Source of the DNA: a virus
Length of the DNA stretch: 64,000 nucleotides
IMG/VR virus record: IMGVR_UViG_3300034170_000100
Span: 10,795-74,794 of that record
Strand: one strand, 5' to 3'
Shown here: piece after piece, positions 2,711 to 55,416 of the stretch
How the letters are laid out: the number at the start of each line of letters is the position of its first letter
How positions within the stretch are numbered: position 1 is the stretch's first letter
The notes under the pieces: model-generated
Databases searched by the model: none
What the model was told of the DNA's origin: nothing
What the model saw: only the letters and a program-made list of their open reading frames with translations
Made by a program: the position numbers and the translations under genes

Positions 2711-2876
2711 GACACTTCTCCGCGGCATTCTGTTTAATCATTTCAATAGCATGGGGTTCAGGAACCTCAAAGCCGTTCTCAAAACAGAATCGGTTGATCT
2801 GTTCTGGTGTCATGTTCTTGATCATTTCATTGTGTAAACGACGATCTAGTTCAACAGCCAGTTGATACGCATCCAT
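2703..2876 (-). CDS. hypothetical early protein
   Basis: ATG 2876 with AGGAG SD. Confidence 0.65.
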   Translation of the reverse strand: MDAYQLAVELDRRLHNEMIKNMTPEQINRFCFENGFEVPEPHAIEMIKQNAAEKCHD

Positions 2877-2892
2877 GGATATAGCTCCTATA

Positions 2893-3135
2893 TTAGAGGC
2901 GAGAGCACAGCACACAGTCACAATTGACAATGTGTGCAAACATACGAGGCTTCGTGACAGTTACTTCACACTCACGATGATCATCATGAATGGCAGCAAC
3001 AATGTCAGGTACAGCAATACGACGCATACGCTTAGTACTCAATTGCTTGAGCACACGACGCTCAGTTGCAGTGTTGTACTTACAAATAGGATGTGTAGCA
3101 TCAGCACGAGACAAGCTAGATACATTGCATTGCAT
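2893..3135 (-). CDS. hypothetical early protein (Cys/His-rich)
   Basis: AGGAG SD; just downstream of hairpin promoter 3174. Confidence 0.6.
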   Translation of the reverse strand: MQCNVSSLSRADATHPICKYNTATERRVLKQLSTKRMRRIAVPDIVAAIHDDHRECEVTVTKPRMFAHIVNCDCVLCSRL

Positions 3136-3173
3136 GGATATAACTCCTGTAGTTGTGGCAATTGCCTACTTCA

Positions 3174-3186
3174 TCCCCGAAGGGGA
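3174..3186 (-). promoter_or_regulatory. virion RNAP hairpin promoter
   Basis: template strand TCCCC-GAA-GGGGA; shares the adjacent CAATTGCCT with the 770 site. Confidence 0.7.
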
Positions 3187-3187
3187 A

Positions 3188-3439
3188 CTATGTAAGCATT
3201 ATTGCAAGTTTGATCAGATCGGGTACATCAGCATAATCTATGCGAGTGTCCCCTTCGTGTTCAAATACAGGAAGCAGTACATACCAACCTTCAACGAGAT
3301 ATTGGATAGCCCCTGGCCAATAGTAGGCTATACCACGATATTCAATAAGCAAATACGCTATTTGATGCGCAGTTGGCACACCATTGGGGAATGGGAGTAC
3401 AGAACCGTCAGCCAATAGCATGTATTCATACATATTCAT
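3188..3439 (-). CDS. early protein, paralog of 3443..3670
   Basis: shared EYMLLxDGSV, GIAYYW and IKLAxML motifs. Confidence 0.8.
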   Translation of the reverse strand: MNMYEYMLLADGSVLPFPNGVPTAHQIAYLLIEYRGIAYYWPGAIQYLVEGWYVLLPVFEHEGDTRIDYADVPDLIKLAIMLT

Positions 3440-3442
3440 ACC

Positions 3443-3670
3443 TTACTCCAGCATGGCTGCAAGTTTGATTACAACAGGCAGTTCATCATAGGTTATTTGC
3501 TTGTTACTCACTTTTGGCGATGTATTAGTAATGCAATTCCAGTTAAAGGTATGGTTGTGCCAGTAATAAGCAATACCATCATAATCAGCCATAGCACCCA
3601 TAACATCTTCATGCATGGCCAGATTGTCGAAGGGTTTTACAGACCCGTCACGAAGCAGCATGTATTCCAT
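3443..3670 (-). CDS. early protein, paralog of 3188..3439
   Basis: ATG 3670 with GAGG SD; same motifs as its neighbour. Confidence 0.8.
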   Translation of the reverse strand: MEYMLLRDGSVKPFDNLAMHEDVMGAMADYDGIAYYWHNHTFNWNCITNTSPKVSNKQITYDELPVVIKLAAMLE

Positions 3671-3699
3671 AATTAGACCTCGATTGATACCGCGACAGA

Positions 3700-9252: not shown

Positions 9253-11406
9253 ATGGCACAAGATGAACAACAACCGCTGGATACGCTGAACCAGCATAAA
9301 CTGACAGATTGGTCTCACGAACCAACTCTGGCGGAATTAAAGCTCGATGTCGAGAACTCTGCTACTGCGCACAAAACGCAGGTGACGCTAATTGACGGCT
9401 GGCTTGAATATCTACACGCGACTGGTAAAGGTGCGGCGCCGAAGGAGAAGAACAAGTCTCAGGCCCAGCCAAAGCTCATTCGCCAGCAAGCAGAGTGGCG
9501 ATACGCTTCTTTGTCCGAGCCTTTCCTTTCTTCCCCAGACATCTTCGAACTGAAGCCGGTTACCTGGGAAGATCGTAATGCTGCGATGCAGAATGGTCTG
9601 CTGCTCAACAACCAGATGAACACCCGCATCGACAAGCAACACTTGATCGACACGATGGTTCGCTGTGCTGTTGATACCGGCGTGGCCTTCCTGAAGACCG
9701 GTTGGTTGCGTGAAGTCAAGAAGGTGAAGCGCCAGGTACCTCAATACGAGCTGACGCAAAATCCTGAATACTTGCAGATCATGCAGGAACTTGATGCACT
9801 CAAGGCTGAATCGCCGTCGCAGTATTACGAAGTCGATGAAGGTTACCGTCTTGCGCATGAAACCTACGAAACCGATGGCATTCCGTATGCTCCGGTGCAA
9901 GTAGGGTTCATTGAAGAAGAACAGGAAGACGTTATTCAGAACCACCCTACGTTGGAGGTGATTTCACACAAGAACATCATCGTTGACCCAACGTGCAAAG
10001 GTATCCTGGAAAACGCCGGCTTTATCGTGCACAAGTTCCTGACCAGCAAGTCCGAGCTGAAGAAGGACGGTCGTTACAAGAACCTGGACAAAATTGTCAC
10101 TGACAAGGCCCAGCCACTTTCAGAGCCTGACTTTGATGTGGGCGTAAAAGATCGGACGTTCAACTTCGCGGATAAAGCCCGAACCAAGATGGTTGCCTAT
10201 GAGTACTGGGGCTTCCGTGATATTGACGGCTCCGGTGTAGTGAAGCCGTTTGTGGCTACCTGGGTAGGCGACATTCTGATCCGTATGGAAGAAAACCCGT
10301 TCCCAGATGAGAAGCTGCCCTTTGTTGCAATTCCATACCTTCCGGTGTACGAATCGGTATATGGCGAGAGCGATGGCTCGCTGCTGATCGAAAACCAGAA
10401 GACTGTTGGTGCAATCCAGCGTGGCATGATTGACGTGTTCGCCAAGTCTGCCAACGGCCAGACCGGTATTGCAAAGGGCGCCCTCGACGCACCGAACAAG
10501 CGCAAGTTTGTTGAAGGTGGTGACTACGAGTTCAACCCGGGCAACGATCCACGGTCGGCGATCCACATGCACACCTTCCAGGAAATTCCTGTGTCGGCGT
10601 GGCAGATGTTGCAAGCGCAAAACCAGCAAGCTGAAGCAATGACCGGGGTCCAGGCTTTCTCTGCTGGCTTGAGTGGTACGTCTCTGGGCGATACTGCCAC
10701 TGGTGTGCGTGGTGCTCTGGATGCTGCGTCGAAGCGTGAGCTGGGCATTCTGCGGCGTCTCGCTGCCGGTGTAGTGAAGGCCGGCCGCAAGATGATCGCC
10801 ATGAACGCGGCATTCTTGGAAGACAAGGAAGTCATTCGGGTAACCAACGATTCGTTCGTGGACATTCGACGTGACGACCTGGCCGGCAACTTCGACATCA
10901 GCCTGGGTATCTCCACGGCCGAGGAGGACAATGCCAAGGCTCAAGAACTGTCCTTCATGCTGCAAACTGTTGGCCCTAACGTAGGCTGGGAAGTGACGGC
11001 AATCATCCTGGCAGACATTGCACGCTTGCGCAAAATGCCTGACTTGGCCAAGAAGATTGAGGACTATCAGCCGCAACCTGATCCTGTTGCTCAGCAAAAA
11101 GCACAACTGGAACTCGCCTTGTTGCAGGCGCAGATTGTTACCGAACAAGCGCGCGCCGCACAGTTCGGCTCCAATGCTCAACTGCATCAGGTCAAGCAGG
11201 GCACCGAAGTTGCGAAGGCCAACGCACTCAATGCGAACGCCGACAAAACTAACCTCGACTTCTTGGAACAGGAGTCCGGTGTTAAGCAAGAACGCGATAA
11301 GGAGATCATGGACAAACAGCACCAGGGTCAGGCACAGTTGCAGGCAGTTCAATCAGCTATCCGGCAACAAGAAGCAAGTCAGATGAATAAACCTGGCGCT
11401 ACGTAA
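9253..11406 (+). CDS. portal protein (N4 gp59-like)
   Basis: PKLIRQQAEWRYASLSEPFLSS motif, P22-like portal features, Q-rich C-terminal barrel. Confidence 0.93.
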   Translation: MAQDEQQPLDTLNQHKLTDWSHEPTLAELKLDVENSATAHKTQVTLIDGWLEYLHATGKGAAPKEKNKSQAQPKLIRQQAEWRYASLSEPFLSSPDIFELKPVTWEDRNAAMQNGLLLNNQMNTRIDKQHLIDTMVRCAVDTGVAFLKTGWLREVKKVKRQVPQYELTQNPEYLQIMQELDALKAESPSQYYEVDEGYRLAHETYETDGIPYAPVQVGFIEEEQEDVIQNHPTLEVISHKNIIVDPTCKGILENAGFIVHKFLTSKSELKKDGRYKNLDKIVTDKAQPLSEPDFDVGVKDRTFNFADKARTKMVAYEYWGFRDIDGSGVVKPFVATWVGDILIRMEENPFPDEKLPFVAIPYLPVYESVYGESDGSLLIENQKTVGAIQRGMIDVFAKSANGQTGIAKGALDAPNKRKFVEGGDYEFNPGNDPRSAIHMHTFQEIPVSAWQMLQAQNQQAEAMTGVQAFSAGLSGTSLGDTATGVRGALDAASKRELGILRRLAAGVVKAGRKMIAMNAAFLEDKEVIRVTNDSFVDIRRDDLAGNFDISLGISTAEEDNAKAQELSFMLQTVGPNVGWEVTAIILADIARLRKMPDLAKKIEDYQPQPDPVAQQKAQLELALLQAQIVTEQARAAQFGSNAQLHQVKQGTEVAKANALNANADKTNLDFLEQESGVKQERDKEIMDKQHQGQAQLQAVQSAIRQQEASQMNKPGAT

Positions 11407-29901: not shown

Positions 29902-29907
29902 CAAGGA

Positions 29908-49327: not shown

Positions 49328-49783
49328 TTACTCCGTAGGGCGTTTCAATTGGAAGACTCCCAGCCCGGCTTGAGCCATAAGCTCAATGCCGGTCATGTCG
49401 TCATGAACACGGTGGAAATACACCCGCTTAATACCGGATGGGATGATTGCACGGGCACATACGTCGCAGGGTGCTACAGTGGAGAACAGCCAGGCACCAT
49501 TGAGTGATGTACCGCTGCGCATAGCCCAGCCCATAGCGTTATTTTCTGCGTGAAGCACAGAACGATCGGTCTTCATCCGCTCTCTGCCATCTTCCACCAC
49601 AGGTGTGTTTTCGCAGCAGTTGGTGTGGTGACCAGCAGGCTGTCCATTCCAACCGGTGACCATAGCCCCGGAAGGGGACACGATGACACAGCCAACGCGC
49701 TCACGTAGGGCTTCAGTCTGGGCTTCAGCTGCATAAGCCTGGGACATGAACATCTGAAGATACTTGTCACGCAGCGGAGTCAT
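49328..49783 (-). CDS. dCMP deaminase
   Basis: VGCVIV, GWNG, HAE and PCDVC zinc-deaminase motifs. Confidence 0.9.
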   Translation of the reverse strand: MTPLRDKYLQMFMSQAYAAEAQTEALRERVGCVIVSPSGAMVTGWNGQPAGHHTNCCENTPVVEDGRERMKTDRSVLHAENNAMGWAMRSGTSLNGAWLFSTVAPCDVCARAIIPSGIKRVYFHRVHDDMTGIELMAQAGLGVFQLKRPTE

Positions 49784-49950
49784 ACGCAATCCTCGAAGGT
49801 GGTGGTGACGTGGCTCACGCCACTGATAAGACCACGCCCGATTTGATCTTCCAGCAGGTCATTCACGATGGTCTCGTATTCCTCACCTGTCAGCTCTTTA
49901 CCGGAGCCTTCAGGGACGTTCAGTGCAACTTGAATAATCACTTGCATCAT
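49780..49950 (-). CDS. 56-aa hypothetical protein
   Basis: AAGGAG SD; ATGA overlaps on both sides. Confidence 0.65.
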   Translation of the reverse strand: MMQVIIQVALNVPEGSGKELTGEEYETIVNDLLEDQIGRGLISGVSHVTTTFEDCV

Positions 49951-50273
49951 TTTGCTCCTTTTTCAAAGCAATTGACGCAATTGACGCCATGTTGGGGGCC
50001 ACCCATACCACGGATGACCGTATGGCATTCAACGCAGGAGATGACACAGGCAGTGGTTACCCTTCCTGGTTTTATTGCGAAGATTGGGGCACCATTTTTG
50101 GAATAGCCCAGCGGGGTATCCTCACCGATTTCGATGTACGAAATTTCGGTTGTACCTTGTTCATCCTGCGAAACTACACGAATAGCCGGGCCTAATGCAC
50201 GGGTAAGTGTATCCATGACGCGAGTCTTACCGGAGCCGGTAGGGCCGGAGATTTCAATTTTAATACTGATCAT
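49947..50273 (-). CDS. small protein with a P-loop-like motif and a CxxC...CxxC zinc ribbon
   Basis: GPTGSGKT; CVEC...CVNC. Confidence 0.7.
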   Translation of the reverse strand: MISIKIEISGPTGSGKTRVMDTLTRALGPAIRVVSQDEQGTTEISYIEIGEDTPLGYSKNGAPIFAIKPGRVTTACVISCVECHTVIRGMGGPQHGVNCVNCFEKGAK

Positions 50274-50890
50274 GCTGCGTCCTTCTCACGAATTTTGACC
50301 ATATGCGCTTTGCACACGGCCTTGATGGTTGGAATGTCCGCGTTCACAGGCAGAGTCACAGGAGTTGCCCAGTTCGGATAGAACAGGTCCAGTGCAGCGC
50401 CCAGTTTCACGGTGTCATGTTCAAGCTCCGGCAGTTCCTGCCAGGACATTTCTTCGATCAGCACCCGGTTGGCAAACTCCACCACTACTGGGTCATTTTT
50501 GATCAAGAGGTAGATAGAGTCATGAATCATAGCAACTGGTTTAATGTCGTACCGAAACGGGCTATCGTGCACACGTTTCATGAAAGCCACGGCAGCGCGG
50601 TTATTGAGCAGCCCATATGACTGTCCCATGGCATTACCGGCAGAACGGCCTTCAGCAGCGACTTCTTTAGGTGTACAATCCAGCCCTAGTACAGAACGGC
50701 CTAGCATTGGGGTACGTAAACGTAAACCAAAGGCTACAGTTACGTACCCATCGACTGTTGCTTGTTTTAGGCGGTCCATGATGTATTCAGTGGAGGCTTT
50801 ATACAAATCGTGAAAATTTGCTTCGATGCGCTTGGCTTTATCTTCTGCCCAACCAAGATTCTTCATTAATGTCGCAAAAGTGCCTTGATA
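50270..50890 (-). CDS. polA: family A DNA polymerase, C-terminal segment (from motif B Tyr through motif C)
   Basis: YQGTFATLMKNLG...RSAGNAMGQS...MIHDSIY; the first ATG (50866) lies 8 codons after the conserved Tyr. Confidence 0.9.
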   Translation of the reverse strand, partial: YQGTFATLMKNLGWAEDKAKRIEANFHDLYKASTEYIMDRLKQATVDGYVTVAFGLRLRTPMLGRSVLGLDCTPKEVAAEGRSAGNAMGQSYGLLNNRAAVAFMKRVHDSPFRYDIKPVAMIHDSIYLLIKNDPVVVEFANRVLIEEMSWQELPELEHDTVKLGAALDLFYPNWATPVTLPVNADIPTIKAVCKAHMVKIREKDAA

Positions 50891-50892
50891 AG

Positions 50893-51036
50893 CTAGGTGA
50901 GAGCAAAGGTTGGGGCTTTGCTCTCTTGGCGTTCCTCCTTATAAAGTTTTGCGATGGAGTTAATACGGAACGTGTCATGCTCCGTACTTTCAATTACTTT
51001 GATGCCCTCAATGGGCGTGTTGATTTTTAGCACCAT
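50893..51036 (-). CDS. polA: family A DNA polymerase, 47-codon segment carrying the first part of motif B
   Basis: MVLKINTPIEGIKVIESTEHDTFRINSIAKLYKEERQESKAPTFALT then TAG; AAGGA SD; absent from the ORF track. Confidence 0.85.
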   Translation of the reverse strand: MVLKINTPIEGIKVIESTEHDTFRINSIAKLYKEERQESKAPTFALT

Positions 51037-51604
51037 TTATCCTTGCGCGGGTTACGCGCTGCAAATAGAGAGATTCGTCCAATTCACCTTCCAATCCCAA
51101 CTCTTGTGCTATTTTCCGCACCTTAGTTGATAGAAAGGGTACTTTATATGGGACTCTTGATGTTAGGCTCTGATAAGACTCACCTTCGATGACGGCGTAC
51201 AGACAATCCACAAATTCTTCTTTAGTGAGTCTGGTTGTGTACACACGCAGCCCTTCGCCAATAGCGTGCAGCTTATTTTCTAGCGAGGTGACCCATTCAA
51301 GATTGGTGCGCGCGTTATTACTACGTACCCCATCCTTATGATTAACCTCTGGTTTGTTTTCTGGGTTGGGTATATGCGCAAGTGCTACAAGCCTATGTAC
51401 ATAAAACGATGTGCCTACATTGCCTGCCCACAAGCTAACTTGAGGGTATTGGGTGTCTTTGTGTGGACTTTGACGTAGCACACGCCCCTTACGGGGGTAA
51501 GTCACACCATCCCGTCCTACGATGATGCGATCTATTGACCGCACCACACCACAGTCACTTACTTCGTAAAGTCCCGTGTAATCAGGCACATTGGAGAAGT
51601 TCAT
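51008..51604 (-). mobile_element. NUMOD4-HNH homing endonuclease inserted in the polymerase gene
   Basis: VPDYTGLYEVSDCGVVRS (NUMOD4), VHRLVA, EVNHKDGVRSNNARTNLEW (HNH); overlaps both polymerase halves. Confidence 0.93.
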
Positions 51605-53645
51605 ACAGTTCCTTACCGGTCATTAAATTACCCAGGTACTCTACTTCCTCCGTAGCGTAAAAGCAAACGTCGGTATCACCAACCTTTGCTCGGTAACACA
51701 CGGCATTCTCCGGTGCCGTTTTAATATCTGACATCCGTTCAGGAAAGTATGCAAAAGCGCGTAAGCAGTGCCCATCATAACCGTCGATGTATACTTTCAG
51801 TTTGTTTGGGTCGCGTGTCGTCAAAGCAGAGATGTAATCTTCCAAAGATGCAAAATCTGCGCCTGCAAAGATCCATCCTGGCGGCCCCATGAACAGTTCC
51901 TTGATTAACTTACCGTAAGCGCTACCACTTGGTATATTTTGCATGTTTGGGTCGGAAGACGACAAACGTCCTGAAATTGTGCCGCCCAGGTTGAATACGC
52001 CATGCAAATAGCGCATGCCGTCGGCTTTGAGGATGCCATTCTCGAATGCAGGCATGAATGCCTGAATGATCTTGGTTACCGCTGAATAGTCGATCAATGC
52101 TTGCAGCAATACCACATATGGCTTGGCCGCTTCGTGATCGAGCAACTGCTTGATGATCTTGCCCCCGGTGGCTGGCGCCTTGGTGGGTGTCCGTGCAAGC
52201 ACAGGCAAGTCCATCAGTTCGTACAACAGGCGGGCCAATTGCAATGGCGAGCCTGGGTTGAAGATCGTGTCGCTGAATTTCTCCAGCGGGTGCTGTTTCG
52301 TCTTCAGTTTGGCGTTGGCCGCCTCCATTGCAGATACCTGCAACAGATAGTTCAGCTTGGCCACCATCGGATCACTTTGGATAACGAGCAGGTATTCCTC
52401 CTGCATCTTCTCCAGTTTTTCCTTGGTTTCGGTGACCTTCTTCGGGTCCATTGGCAAGCCCACCAACTCGACGTTGATGATCAGCTTCATGGAATCCTTC
52501 ATCAGGCCGTCGTACAACTCCAGCTGCTGATCCTGCACCACGACAGGCATATGCTTGTCATAGGTGAAGTTCGTGGCCATACAGTCCACTCCGTTGTAAC
52601 GGAGTAGGTTTGGCAGTGGAATTTTGCGGATGTCCTTGATGTCGTCCTCTGCGTAGTTGCCGGTGAACTCCTGGGACTGGTACTTCAAGCCGAGGGTGTT
52701 ACCCGAGCATGAGTTGACCGAAAGGTAGCTGAGGATCTTGGTGCAATCCAGATTGCTACACATGATGTCCAGACCTTCCAGACAGCTCACGTAATCCAGC
52801 GGATCACGCATCCAGAGGTTGTAAATCAGGTGCTTCACGTCAAACGTGGCACTGTGGAACCGCTTGGCGCCGATGTACTTCTTGAGGAAGTCCTTGAGTA
52901 TTTCACGAACCTCGACGTTGTCCTTGCGGTAGTGATAGTTCCCATCTTCGTCCTTTGCGCCCAGATCGTTCAAATCGACAGGGAATGCAATGAAGTCGTG
53001 GTGGGTCCAGGCTAAAGCGAAGGTGGCAATACCACATTCGTCCAGACGCAGGCTGTAGCCCTCGATGTCCATGGCAAGGTGGGGGAACTTGTGCAGTTCC
53101 ATCAGCGCGTTGCGGATTTCGTTCGGGGTCTTGGGGTAGAACTCCGAATGGATGATCTTGTCACCAGGCGGCACGTAGTTGCCCAGCACTTTGCTGCACA
53201 GCGCGTCCAGACCTTGTTCCAAGTGCGCTTGCTTATCCGGTGCGTAGATCAGCACCTGATAGTTCACACCCAGGACCACTTGCATGTGCTCGTAGCCTTT
53301 TACAGCACAGGGCAGCGAGTAGCCCAGGTGAACCTCGGACTTCTTCTGACCGGTGAGGTACTTGAAGTACGTACCATCGGTGCAGTAGATGAACTTGGTG
53401 CCGGTGCGCTCCAAGACGTTCAGCAGGCGAGCGGAATACTCCTTCACCTGTTGCGCGGATACCTTCTTCGCATTTTCATACGAGAGGGTGAAGGCAATGC
53501 AGTCCTCCTTCTTTATCCCTCTGGTTTCCAGCGGAGCGATGTAGTTTTTGTAGATCAAGTTCTGATCGAACGTGTATTGCTTCATGAGCATGGCAACGGG
53601 ATAATTACCGGACTCATTTTTACCGAAAAACAGGTGGTGACGCAT
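51582..53645 (-). CDS. polA: family A DNA polymerase, N-terminal part (3'-5' exonuclease, thumb, motif A)
   Basis: ExoI DIEG, ExoII FDVKHL, ExoIII YNGVD, TISGRLSSSDPNMQNIP, motif A ADFASLE, YDGH. Confidence 0.95.
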   Translation of the reverse strand: MRHHLFFGKNESGNYPVAMLMKQYTFDQNLIYKNYIAPLETRGIKKEDCIAFTLSYENAKKVSAQQVKEYSARLLNVLERTGTKFIYCTDGTYFKYLTGQKKSEVHLGYSLPCAVKGYEHMQVVLGVNYQVLIYAPDKQAHLEQGLDALCSKVLGNYVPPGDKIIHSEFYPKTPNEIRNALMELHKFPHLAMDIEGYSLRLDECGIATFALAWTHHDFIAFPVDLNDLGAKDEDGNYHYRKDNVEVREILKDFLKKYIGAKRFHSATFDVKHLIYNLWMRDPLDYVSCLEGLDIMCSNLDCTKILSYLSVNSCSGNTLGLKYQSQEFTGNYAEDDIKDIRKIPLPNLLRYNGVDCMATNFTYDKHMPVVVQDQQLELYDGLMKDSMKLIINVELVGLPMDPKKVTETKEKLEKMQEEYLLVIQSDPMVAKLNYLLQVSAMEAANAKLKTKQHPLEKFSDTIFNPGSPLQLARLLYELMDLPVLARTPTKAPATGGKIIKQLLDHEAAKPYVVLLQALIDYSAVTKIIQAFMPAFENGILKADGMRYLHGVFNLGGTISGRLSSSDPNMQNIPSGSAYGKLIKELFMGPPGWIFAGADFASLEDYISALTTRDPNKLKVYIDGYDGHCLRAFAYFPERMSDIKTAPENAVCYRAKVGDTDVCFYATEEVEYLGNLMTGKELYELLQCA

Positions 53646-54169
53646 TAGCTGTCCCCTCTGATGATGTTGGTCATTAAACGAATTTTCAAAGCGTCTAATG
53701 ACCGTTCTCCGATACCCATTTCATGGGCAGCGTCGTCCATGTCCACATCGGTCAATTTCATGCCCTCAGTGTCTAGAACTGTTTGGAACGGCACACGAAG
53801 TGCCGTCGGTAACCGCTGAAAGAGAACTTCTGCGTCGTCTGACGAGTTGAGCCACTTTTGCAAGTAGCCCGCGATCAGAGGGCGTTCTTCACGCTCAATG
53901 AGGCGCTCTTCGTCGAGAATCTCGTCCATTCGAGCATGAAGACTGCTAAACAAGCGGGGTATATTTTGTGGCGGTCTTGCGTAACGCGACTGCGTGTGAA
54001 ACTTGTTGCGGTAAACGAAACCGAAGTACTGAACGCCAACCAAGGCGTCATTTTCGTCAATCAGTTCCTTTAGGCGCAATTCATTCCTCTTCAGCACAGG
54101 GCTGTAGATAAAATCGAGCAGTGCCTCGCGGACCTTCAATTTGAAGTGTGCCTTGGTGCGGCGATCCAT
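53645..54169 (-). CDS. conserved protein between helicase and polymerase (N4 gp38 position)
   Basis: GGAGG SD before ATG 54169; synteny. Confidence 0.75.
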   Translation of the reverse strand: MDRRTKAHFKLKVREALLDFIYSPVLKRNELRLKELIDENDALVGVQYFGFVYRNKFHTQSRYARPPQNIPRLFSSLHARMDEILDEERLIEREERPLIAGYLQKWLNSSDDAEVLFQRLPTALRVPFQTVLDTEGMKLTDVDMDDAAHEMGIGERSLDALKIRLMTNIIRGDS

Positions 54170-55416
54170 TAATTCCTCCGAAGATCTCCGGTCATAACGA
54201 TTCTGAAACGAGCACGGCTCAAGCCCACATAAAGCAGGCGTGCGAGCTGTTCCAGCGTCCGAGTCATCGAACACACGTCGTCCAGGTCGATCATGATGAT
54301 GTCGTAGGTAGAACCTTGCGACTTGTTGATTGTTTGGGCGAATGCCGGCCGAAGTTCAATCCAGGTGTCCAGGATTATCTTCATGGCTTGGAAGTCGTCA
54401 TCGTACACAGCTTGCTTGTGCGCTTTGTCCTTATCGCCGCGGTCCTTTGGCATGAAGAAATAGCCACCCTTGCCGAGGAAGCGAATCGTGTAGCCTTCTA
54501 CGGAATACTCCATAATTGGCTCGATTGTCTCGATGGTGACCTCTTCATTTGTTGTGCAACGGCAGGCATTGCTTTGCACCGCCTCGTTGACAAGCATTTT
54601 TTGCCCTGCCTGGGGAACAGTAGACCCGAGGATCTTCTTTGACAGGTAGTTGTTGAACGCGGTTACTCGGTCATTGGTGTAGGCCAGGATTTTGACATGT
54701 TTGTCTTTTTCCTCGGTAAATAACCGAACAGCCTCAGCATTAAACGCCGGCCGATCAAGGCGGTCGATAACACCAGGGGTGAGCGGGAATCTGGACCAAT
54801 TGCCTTCCATAACGGCAGCACGCAGAGAACCCATAAAGGCTTCCAGCACGCCACCGTTAAAACGCACCAAGTCGGTCAGTTCAATCTCGCAAGCGTTCAT
54901 TTCGAACACTGGCATCTTTTCTGAGCCAACGGGTGTCAATTGCGCAGGGTCGCCGATAAAGACGATCTTACACTTGCGGCACTGAGCCAAAATTTTGGCT
55001 AATGCCTCTTGGTCGAGGAAAGACGCTTCGTCGAGGAATACCAGCTTGTTTTCCAAGCCGTCCCCGTATGGAACGAGATGTGACTCTCGTGTCTTGTAGT
55101 CCCGGACCACACGCAGTTGGCAAGCCGAGTAAATCGTTGAAGCTATCGGCTTATAGCCGACGGCCAGCGAGAATGCTTCAGCTGCCTGGTTTGTTGTTGC
55201 CGTCAGAACAATTTCAGGTGGAATGTAGCCAGGGGCCACCAACTTCGCCATTTCATCCATCATCGGCAGCTGTTCTATCAGGTATTTGACCAAGGTGGTC
55301 TTACCGGTGCCGGAATACCCCTTGAGCACCATTACCGTCTGATTTGGGTCGAGATAGAACGGAAGGAATGTATCATACCCCCGTTCTTGGCTAGGGGTGA
55401 GGTTAAATTTACTCAT
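54169..55416 (-). CDS. dda: Dda-like SF1B DNA helicase
   Basis: GYSGTGKT, FLDEAS, IGDPAQL, TINKSQGSTY and LYVGLSRA motifs. Confidence 0.92.
   Translation of the reverse strand: MSKFNLTPSQERGYDTFLPFYLDPNQTVMVLKGYSGTGKTTLVKYLIEQLPMMDEMAKLVAPGYIPPEIVLTATTNQAAEAFSLAVGYKPIASTIYSACQLRVVRDYKTRESHLVPYGDGLENKLVFLDEASFLDQEALAKILAQCRKCKIVFIGDPAQLTPVGSEKMPVFEMNACEIELTDLVRFNGGVLEAFMGSLRAAVMEGNWSRFPLTPGVIDRLDRPAFNAEAVRLFTEEKDKHVKILAYTNDRVTAFNNYLSKKILGSTVPQAGQKMLVNEAVQSNACRCTTNEEVTIETIEPIMEYSVEGYTIRFLGKGGYFFMPKDRGDKDKAHKQAVYDDDFQAMKIILDTWIELRPAFAQTINKSQGSTYDIIMIDLDDVCSMTRTLEQLARLLYVGLSRARFRIVMTGDLRRN

Follow-up and report, generated by a model that had tools for sequence, protein, structure and literature searches.

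Introduction

Knowledge of programmed translational bypassing has so far rested almost entirely on gene 60 of bacteriophage T4 and its homologues. In the gene 39/mobA/gene 60 arrangement of T4, an essential replication gene is interrupted by an HNH endonuclease gene, and the two resulting parts have gained extensions at the C and N terminus (10.1101/2022.08.31.505936; PMC5462505). The insert, located in highly conserved DNA that is a likely endonuclease target, lies about 46-47 codons into the second part, and UAG, followed by A, comes directly after the take-off codon; the ribosome skips 50 nt and lands on a matched codon, with a mini-Shine-Dalgarno (SD) motif 6 nt before the landing site. 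The T4 cassette occurs solely in Topo2L genes, and the same source attributes to the bypass insert a protective role against the endonuclease, MobA (10.1101/2022.08.31.505936). A stem-loop 5′ of the take-off site is separated from it by 9 nt and lacks conservation across clades (10.1101/2024.12.09.627546; 10.1101/2022.08.31.505936). Pairing of the mRNA as it exits the ribosome has been proposed as the driver of gene 60 bypassing (10.1101/2024.12.09.627546), and the role of this pairing behind the ribosome is debated.

Several other systems involve ribosome movements of a related kind. On the 70S ribosome, a hairpin adjoining the E site promotes forward (+1) frameshifting and dampens −1 frameshifting, mimicking the SD duplex of prfB (PMC6321510, PMC3639245); these stimulators, mostly characterized in engineered reporters, combine a stable duplex directly 5′ of the E and P sites with a slow A-site stop codon and move the ribosome by +1 onto overlapping codons. 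Short peptidyl-tRNA hops over a stop codon flanked by matched codons have been obtained with synthetic constructs in Escherichia coli and are described in PMC5009743 as artificial, of low efficiency and operating without stimulators. The byp elements of Magnusiomyces capitatus, as portrayed in the same source, are short mobile inserts in conserved coding sequence that are bypassed in translation and tolerate imperfect matches between take-off and landing sites; they are 27-55 nt long and GC-rich, belong to a mitochondrial system without SD and, in that account, are unlinked to homing endonucleases (PMC5009743). No natural in-frame stop hop is known, and short natural counterparts of gene 60 have long been expected (PMC5009743).

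Here, we analyze a stretch of viral DNA of 64,000 nt (positions 10,795 to 74,794 of the IMG/VR record IMGVR_UViG_3300034170_000100), hereafter referred to as the window, the numbering of which is used throughout. The virus record from which the window is taken is complete, measures 74.8 kb and has direct terminal repeats (DTR); the closest cultured relative of the phage is the N4-like Pseudomonas phage phCDa (Schitoviridae). Comparison with related loci supports a putative homing endonuclease-associated bypass in which a 5′ hairpin abutting the take-off codon is the clearest conserved signal. Full-text searches of the literature did not turn up any account of bypassing for the polymerases of N4-like phages.

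Results

A DNA polymerase gene split by an endonuclease cassette

The family A DNA polymerase of the window is encoded in pieces on the minus strand. Polymerase part 1 (51582-53645, minus strand; 687 aa) encompasses the exonuclease region and motif A and has about 45 aa of cassette origin added at its C terminus, a tail that is homologous in the related loci L063, L068 and L070. The adjacent free-standing homing endonuclease gene (51008-51604, minus strand), assigned to NUMOD4 and HNH_3 by Pfam, overlaps both of its neighbours, part 1 at its end and part 2 where it begins. The first 47 codons of part 2 (ORF2a; 50893-51036, minus strand), with AAGGA positioned 3 nt before the ATG, encode about 22 aa of N-terminal extension, derived from the cassette, and the first half of motif B, and end at UAG. 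The fourth residue of the motif B sequence FALT is the Thr encoded by ACC (50896-50898, minus strand), the putative take-off codon, which is followed by a 5-nt coding gap, TAGCT (50891-50895, minus strand), consisting of the in-frame UAG (50895-50893) and CU (50892-50891). The polymerase resumes in a frame other than that of ORF2a (50270-50890, minus strand), beginning with the Tyr codon TAT (50890-50888) and reaching a stop at 50272-50270; this frame encodes the rest of motif B and motif C, aligns with positions 219-361 of Pfam DNA_pol_A and shares 91% amino acid identity with phCDa. Thirteen homologous short ORFs, 14 with the window's own, end at the same motif as ORF2a.

In a blastn comparison with the intact polymerase gene of phCDa (877 aa), the window aligns in two blocks, the second of which (window positions 50919-50274, 646 nt) contains a sole indel: motif B of the window is longer by five bases, placed between its Thr and Tyr codons, which follow one another uninterrupted at the homologous site of phCDa. 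Skipping 50895-50891 restores the invariant RxxxKxxxFxxxY spacing. Given that this spacing is intact in 64/64 gap-free IMG/VR relatives, the exact join is what selection demands.

The 5-nt gap is not an assembly or sequencing error, as the original prediction had held. A separately assembled 8-kb Logan contig, with a depth of 21.5, is identical to the window over 50200-53700 and keeps the gap with no indel; it originates from a peat metatranscriptomic library, the only public run with this stretch, which may be the source sample. No joined form lacking the gap was found in this contig, although contigs can miss rare forms. Furthermore, the complete 74.8-kb genome contains a single PolA and no second copy, and the TAGCT gap is also present in L068 and, four codons upstream, in L018. 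Compared directly, window GCTCTCACC/TAGCT and L018 GCTCCCACT/TAGCT display the same pentanucleotide after two quasi-repeated 9-mers, four codons apart, which comprise Ala-Leu-Thr and Ala-Pro-Thr codons in the two phages. The process of insertion may have been specific for a sequence, or selection for UAG and GCU may have been convergent.

Other ways of rejoining the polymerase were also considered. A search of Rfam with window positions 49500-54500 yielded no group I intron or other family at E <= 1, and the overlap of the ORFs at this locus leaves little non-coding room for an intron. A split intein or fractured gene was rejected, no Pfam intein (Hint) domain being found in part 1 or ORF2a; the extensions, about 67 aa in total, would be too short for a Hint fold. 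Decoding of the gap by a phage tRNA was rejected as well, given that the window encodes no tRNA-Thr. Its sole tRNA is a tRNA-Leu with the unusual anticodon AAG (29905-29988, minus strand). Neither megablast of the region against GenBank phages nor an exact 19-mer scan of IMG/VR returned a match, and tblastn of the 47-aa ORF against GenBank phages retrieved ordinary polymerases only, so that no cultured phage with the cassette was found in this set.

A hairpin abutting the take-off codon

Immediately 5′ of ACC, the mRNA can form the perfect hairpin that had been predicted from the window alone (hairpin 1; 50899-50925, minus strand), which covers codons 38-46 of part 2 (ESKAPTFAL). The 5′ arm (50925-50916) and the 3′ arm (50908-50899) form ten Watson-Crick pairs closed by a 7-nt loop (50915-50909), and the last base of the 3′ arm immediately precedes ACC, i.e., the stem ends at −1. 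Hairpin 1 alone has a calculated energy of −13.3 kcal/mol and is present in both the MFE and the centroid structures of a 201-nt fold (−56.6 kcal/mol, z = −3.9), which is equalled by 0/200 shuffles. A 4-bp stem 3′ of UAG, also present in the window MFE, was not counted because it loses a pair in L068.

The codon sets for ESK and FAL are reverse complements of one another, so that some of the pairs arise automatically when AGY is used for Ser. Because of this intrinsic pairing, hairpin 1 was tested in three ways, by recoding, by comparison with gap-free relatives and through the codons of L068. When the synonymous codons of the 20-aa peptide were resampled with the usage of this phage, a stem as good ending at −1 was obtained in 0/3000 recodings of the window. 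At the homologous register, 56 non-redundant gap-free relatives show a mean of −1.1 +/- 2.2 kcal/mol. The expectation that the hairpin would be absent from gap-free relatives holds for the closest of these, which keep just 3-6 of the 10 pairs, but not for the distant relatives L041 and L044, in which a version with 8 Watson-Crick and 2 G-U pairs (−10.8 kcal/mol) constitutes the only comparable stem among the 56; in five further gap-free relatives, 9/10 pairs can form. In the comparison of the window with L068, all stem codons are identical (7/7) against a baseline of 38% (190/503 identical-residue codons; p = 0.001), the corresponding value inside the HNH gene being 40%, whereas both loop codons and the take-off codon differ. 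Such a codon pattern, with the stem codons kept and the loop and take-off codons changed, is the hallmark of selection that acts on base pairing as such.

Independent gap alleles with their own stems

A search with the short ORF, degenerate DNA patterns and alignment of HNH proteins identified five more DNA loci with the part 1-HNH-part 2 architecture, L068, L018, L070, L075 and L073, along with eight further short ORFs (P0001-P0008, Logan/ENA) that end at, or 1-5 codons after, the same Thr. The metagenome scan added no locus beyond L070. In the window, the proposed hop leads from ACC to the landing triplet GCU (50893-50891, minus strand), and L068 has the same 5-nt gap, with putative take-off at ACT and landing at GCU, and the same 10-bp stem (−13.1 kcal/mol) ending at −1. 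In L018, it is the other Thr codon, lying four codons upstream, that TAGCT follows (ACT to GCU), and the stem is an unrelated, GC-rich one of 8 bp (−13.5 kcal/mol), again ending at −1. The gap of L070 comprises 40 nt between ACU and ACA, with a stem of 6 bp (−7.3 kcal/mol) ending at −1; that of L075 comprises 9 nt in frame (AGG, UAA, CUU), with take-off at CUC and landing at CUU, and a 10-bp stem with the register shifted by one codon (−9.7 kcal/mol), also at −1. Finally, the gap of L073 is a single nucleotide (UUU C; UUU to UUC), and its 7-bp stem (−8.9 kcal/mol) ends at −4, that is, 3 nt before UUU and beside the E-site codon. Whereas GCU is only near-cognate for tRNA-Thr, the codons for take-off and landing match in L070 (ACU/ACA), L075 (CUC/CUU) and L073 (UUU/UUC).

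The window and L068 share cassette ancestry and, therefore, count as one of five independent lineages rather than two of six. Each of the five independent gap alleles (1, 5, 5, 9 and 40 nt, at four motif B codons) has its own stem 0-3 nt before the take-off codon. As the stems of all six loci end by their own take-off codons, the register of the stem moves with take-off across the four codons. With the best of three registers considered, a stem of −7.3 kcal/mol or better is found in 5/5 gap lineages compared with 2/56 gap-free relatives (Mann-Whitney p = 2e-4). The synonymous nulls yield 0/3000 for L068, 0.0007 for L018, 0.008 for L070 and 0.0017 for L075 (L073 was not included). This recurrence lends comparative support to the proposal, originally made for the window only, that the 5′ stem aids the hop.

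Some of these alleles have features of their own. In L075 (3677-3700, plus strand), the Leu codon CUC is followed by AGG, UAA and CUU, and then by the Thr and Tyr of motif B; this locus is a candidate natural in-frame stop-hop, with nine bases skipped between matched Leu codons. L073 (3638-3662, plus strand), where UUU C is followed by GCA, has the textbook layout of a +1 slip, with tRNA-Phe moving from UUU to UUC; the ATG of its short ORF is mutated to ATA, and the likely start is GTG. Within the 40-nt gap of L070 (9755-9794, minus strand; same contig as L071), there is an 8-bp GC hairpin, the 3′ part is rich in AU, and a G-rich tract precedes the putative landing codon, ACA, by 7 nt; no stop directly follows take-off in this case, the next codon being GGA. 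In its layout, the L070 gap is nearer to T4 gene 60 than that of the window.

Association with HNH endonucleases

Homologues of the HNH protein are encoded in all six gap-bearing loci, and every locus with HNH has the gap (6/6), the HNH of L068 being 67% identical to that of the window. In L063, the polymerase is split at the same place, but another ORF replaces HNH, and motif B is intact. This ORF, which we take to be DUF2829-like, is found between the polymerase halves both in L063 (2099-2839; alone, without HNH or gap) and in L070 (10452-10919; together with HNH), suggesting that parts of the cassette were gained or lost stepwise.

In Acinetobacter phage nACB1 (L072, OQ032511.1), an HNH protein with 52% identity is encoded within a group I intron (Rfam Intron_gpI, E = 1e-8) in the same motif. 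The intron (2834-3694) interrupts motif B after the Phe-Ala codons, the GenBank record lists two separate ‘DNA polymerase’ CDSs, and joining of the exons (the 5′ exon ends with T and the intron with G) restores Phe-Ala-Leu-Thr-Tyr. Given that this intron sits in the same motif, the DNA encoding motif B is the likely target of this HNH family. A free-standing HNH gene located about 110 nt upstream would leave the target in its own genome intact unless it were disrupted. By analogy with T4, the insert probably protects the genome carrying the cassette from its own HNH enzyme.

A second stem and a Shine-Dalgarno-like run

The second stem, proposed together with hairpin 1, is located in the N-terminal extension (50963-50987, minus strand), where 9 pairs, including two G-U, enclose a 7-nt loop; counting an outer A-U brings the number of pairs to 10. 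This stem is real insofar as it belongs to the MFE structure and the 111 nt on the 5′ side of hairpin 1 reach −30.0 compared with −19.9 +/- 4.2 for synonymous recodings (p = 0.017). Relatives, however, showed no stem at this position and, accordingly, we assign no role to the second stem. Between the two stems, 8 nt 5′ of the base of hairpin 1, there is an internal SD-like run, AAGGAGG (50934-50940, minus strand), for which pairing with the anti-SD is calculated at −10.0 kcal/mol. In the window, L068 and L070, this duplex attains −9.3 kcal/mol or better, whereas 0/56 gap-free relatives fall below −7.3, and the four codons of the run are identical in L068. In the window, L068, L070, L073, L075 and L018, the take-off hairpin has AAGGAGG, GGAGG or AAGGAG on the 5′ side of its base, at a distance of 1-10 nt. 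The SD-like run may act together with the stem where the mRNA leaves the ribosome, or it may set the spacing of trailing ribosomes.

Discussion

Our analysis reveals a perfect stem that ends at the last base before a coding gap in the only DNA polymerase gene of an N4-like phage, with similarly placed stems at independent gap alleles in related phages. We consider it probable that hairpin 1 is the 5′ stimulatory element of a programmed hop that repairs the 5-nt insert. The event would be a +5 stop-hop, in which Thr-tRNA moves from ACC to GCU. On arrival of the ribosome, peptidyl-tRNA-Thr would be paired with ACC in the P site, and UAG, which is decoded slowly, would fill the A site; by then, the 5′ arm of the hairpin and its loop would have left the ribosome, with the 3′ arm still in the E site and the first part of the exit path. 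By zipping up, the stem would draw the mRNA out in the 5′ direction, favour both release of the E-site tRNA and dissociation of codon and anticodon, and block backward slippage. A tRNA-Thr with the anticodon GGU is part of bacterial tRNA sets, and such a tRNA could re-pair 5 nt downstream on GCU through G-U, C-G and U-G; UAU (Tyr) would then enter the A site, with the exact RxxxKxxxFxxxY spacing restored. The mechanics of these steps are uncertain because a shift of 5 nt lets only a few stem pairs form outside the standard exit path. A Leu pair, CUC to CUU, was also considered as take-off and landing sites of the window and rejected because it stays in the dead frame. Extending the model to all alleles, we tentatively suggest, with somewhat less conviction than would make it our expectation, that the N4-like motif harbours a series of 1-, 5-, 9- and 40-nt hops, each driven mainly by an E-site-invading stem and a slow A-site codon.

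Arguably, the hairpin could be a by-product of the ESK and FAL codons that hitch-hikes on the cassette, with the hop itself brought about by the stop codon and the nascent peptide. Such an origin would fit with the shared ancestry of the window and L068, the presence of all 10 pairs in the gap-free L041 and L044 and of 9/10 in five other gap-free relatives, and the lack of conservation of the 5′ stem-loop in the gene 60 family, where it may be dispensable (10.1101/2022.08.31.505936). However, the stems of L018, L070, L075 and L073 differ in sequence and register and yet follow the take-off codon, the synonymous nulls are at most 0.008 in every lineage run (L073 not among them), and the 7/7 retention of stem codons between the window and L068 contrasts with the 40% of synonymous codons kept in the HNH gene, which makes this explanation unlikely. 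Very unlikely, in our assessment, is a different purpose of the stem, such as mRNA stability or processing, a brake on the expression of part 2 or HNH, or a DNA inverted repeat involved in endonuclease recognition or immunity: the whole 201-nt region is unusually structured, with the second stem and the SD-like element nearby, and the stem lies within the presumed HNH target region, but none of these functions would explain why the 3′ ends of five stems track their take-off codons. A terminator, in particular, is disfavoured by the lack of a U-tract after the stem.

It is also conceivable that the gap is read by a +2 or −1 frameshift that adds 1-2 residues to the O-helix, or that it is not decoded at all, the gene representing a defective variant or the polymerase functioning in three pieces. 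In all of these cases, any event stimulated by hairpin 1 would be one other than the +5 hop. Sequence alone cannot distinguish a +2 from a +5 event, and GCU is not a cognate Thr codon. Nevertheless, several observations make such scenarios distinctly unlikely: the motif B spacing does not vary in the 64 relatives, and inserts occur at differing helix positions across phages; the gaps of L075, which is in frame with a stop, and of L070, with 40 nt and stops, cannot be read through; and −1 shifts are attenuated by upstream hairpins (PMC6321510). An undecoded gap, in turn, is at odds with the consensus at depth 21.5, with the sole PolA in a complete genome and with the termination of 14 short ORFs, including that of the window, at one and the same motif. 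Removal of the five bases from the RNA, by a micro-intron or editing, could be envisaged considering that a related HNH resides in a true group I intron in nACB1, but there is no Rfam intron in the window, 5 nt cannot form a ribozyme, and the metatranscriptomic contig, which could miss rare forms, keeps the 5 nt and includes no joined form; the recurrence of TAGCT in L068 and L018 likewise speaks against an assembly artefact, and we regard both possibilities as most improbable.

The programmed hop assisted by hairpin 1, which we favour, resembles T4 gene 60 in many respects, including the splitting of an essential replication gene by HNH, the extensions added to both parts, the placement of the gap and of UAG directly after take-off, the insertion in highly conserved DNA and the presence of mRNA structure 5′ of the take-off site. 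The host gene, however, is PolA, interrupted in motif B, rather than Topo2L, the phage is an N4-like podophage, and the endonuclease combines NUMOD4 with HNH_3. Moreover, because the gap of the window comprises 5 nt instead of 50, it contains neither a stem-loop of the take-off or A site, with which the T4 gap starts, nor a mini-SD; take-off is followed by UAGCT rather than UAG(A), and the landing is near-cognate (ACC/GCU) rather than matched. The parallel with T4 that was drawn initially therefore stands for the existence of a structure 5′ of take-off but not for its geometry: the stem of the window abuts the take-off codon, is conserved and tracks the codon, whereas the 5′ stem-loop of the T4 family lies 9 nt away and is poorly conserved.

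The nearer experimental precedent is the refolding hairpin juxtaposed to the E site (PMC6321510). As with prfB and the synthetic stimulators, a stable duplex directly 5′ of the E and P sites would act in combination with a slow A-site stop to promote forward movement, and the geometry of L073 is that of the tested E-site-juxtaposed hairpin; unlike these cases, the window, where the gene is essential and of natural origin, would involve a +5 movement to a triplet that does not overlap the first, with a stem that includes the E-site codon. The short hop of a peptidyl-tRNA over a stop codon links the window to the synthetic stop-hops as PMC5009743 describes them, from which it would differ in changing the frame and having a dedicated hairpin. 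With byp, to the extent portrayed in that source, the window has in common a short mobile insert in conserved coding sequence and the imperfect match of take-off and landing sites, but neither the length of the insert nor the absence of a homing endonuclease.

Bypass-type reading of a gene is rare. If the mechanism outlined above is correct, the +5 stop-hop of the window would be the first natural one to change the frame, L075 would add a natural case that stays in frame, and a two-element module that pulls the mRNA from behind would be sufficient for short bypassing. Stems that track the take-off codon, together with the traces of selection at synonymous sites, in a gene unrelated to that of T4, amount to comparative evidence that pairing of the exiting mRNA matters. 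The natural cassette is very small, about 190 nt, and hence suited to reporter and single-molecule assays; if the model holds, it would offer a compact system to address whether exiting-mRNA pairing is the motor of bypassing. For annotation, the implication is that N4-like polymerases that seem frameshifted or truncated may be intact at the level of the protein. More generally, these findings extend the strategy of a homing endonuclease plus a protective coding gap to DNA polymerases.
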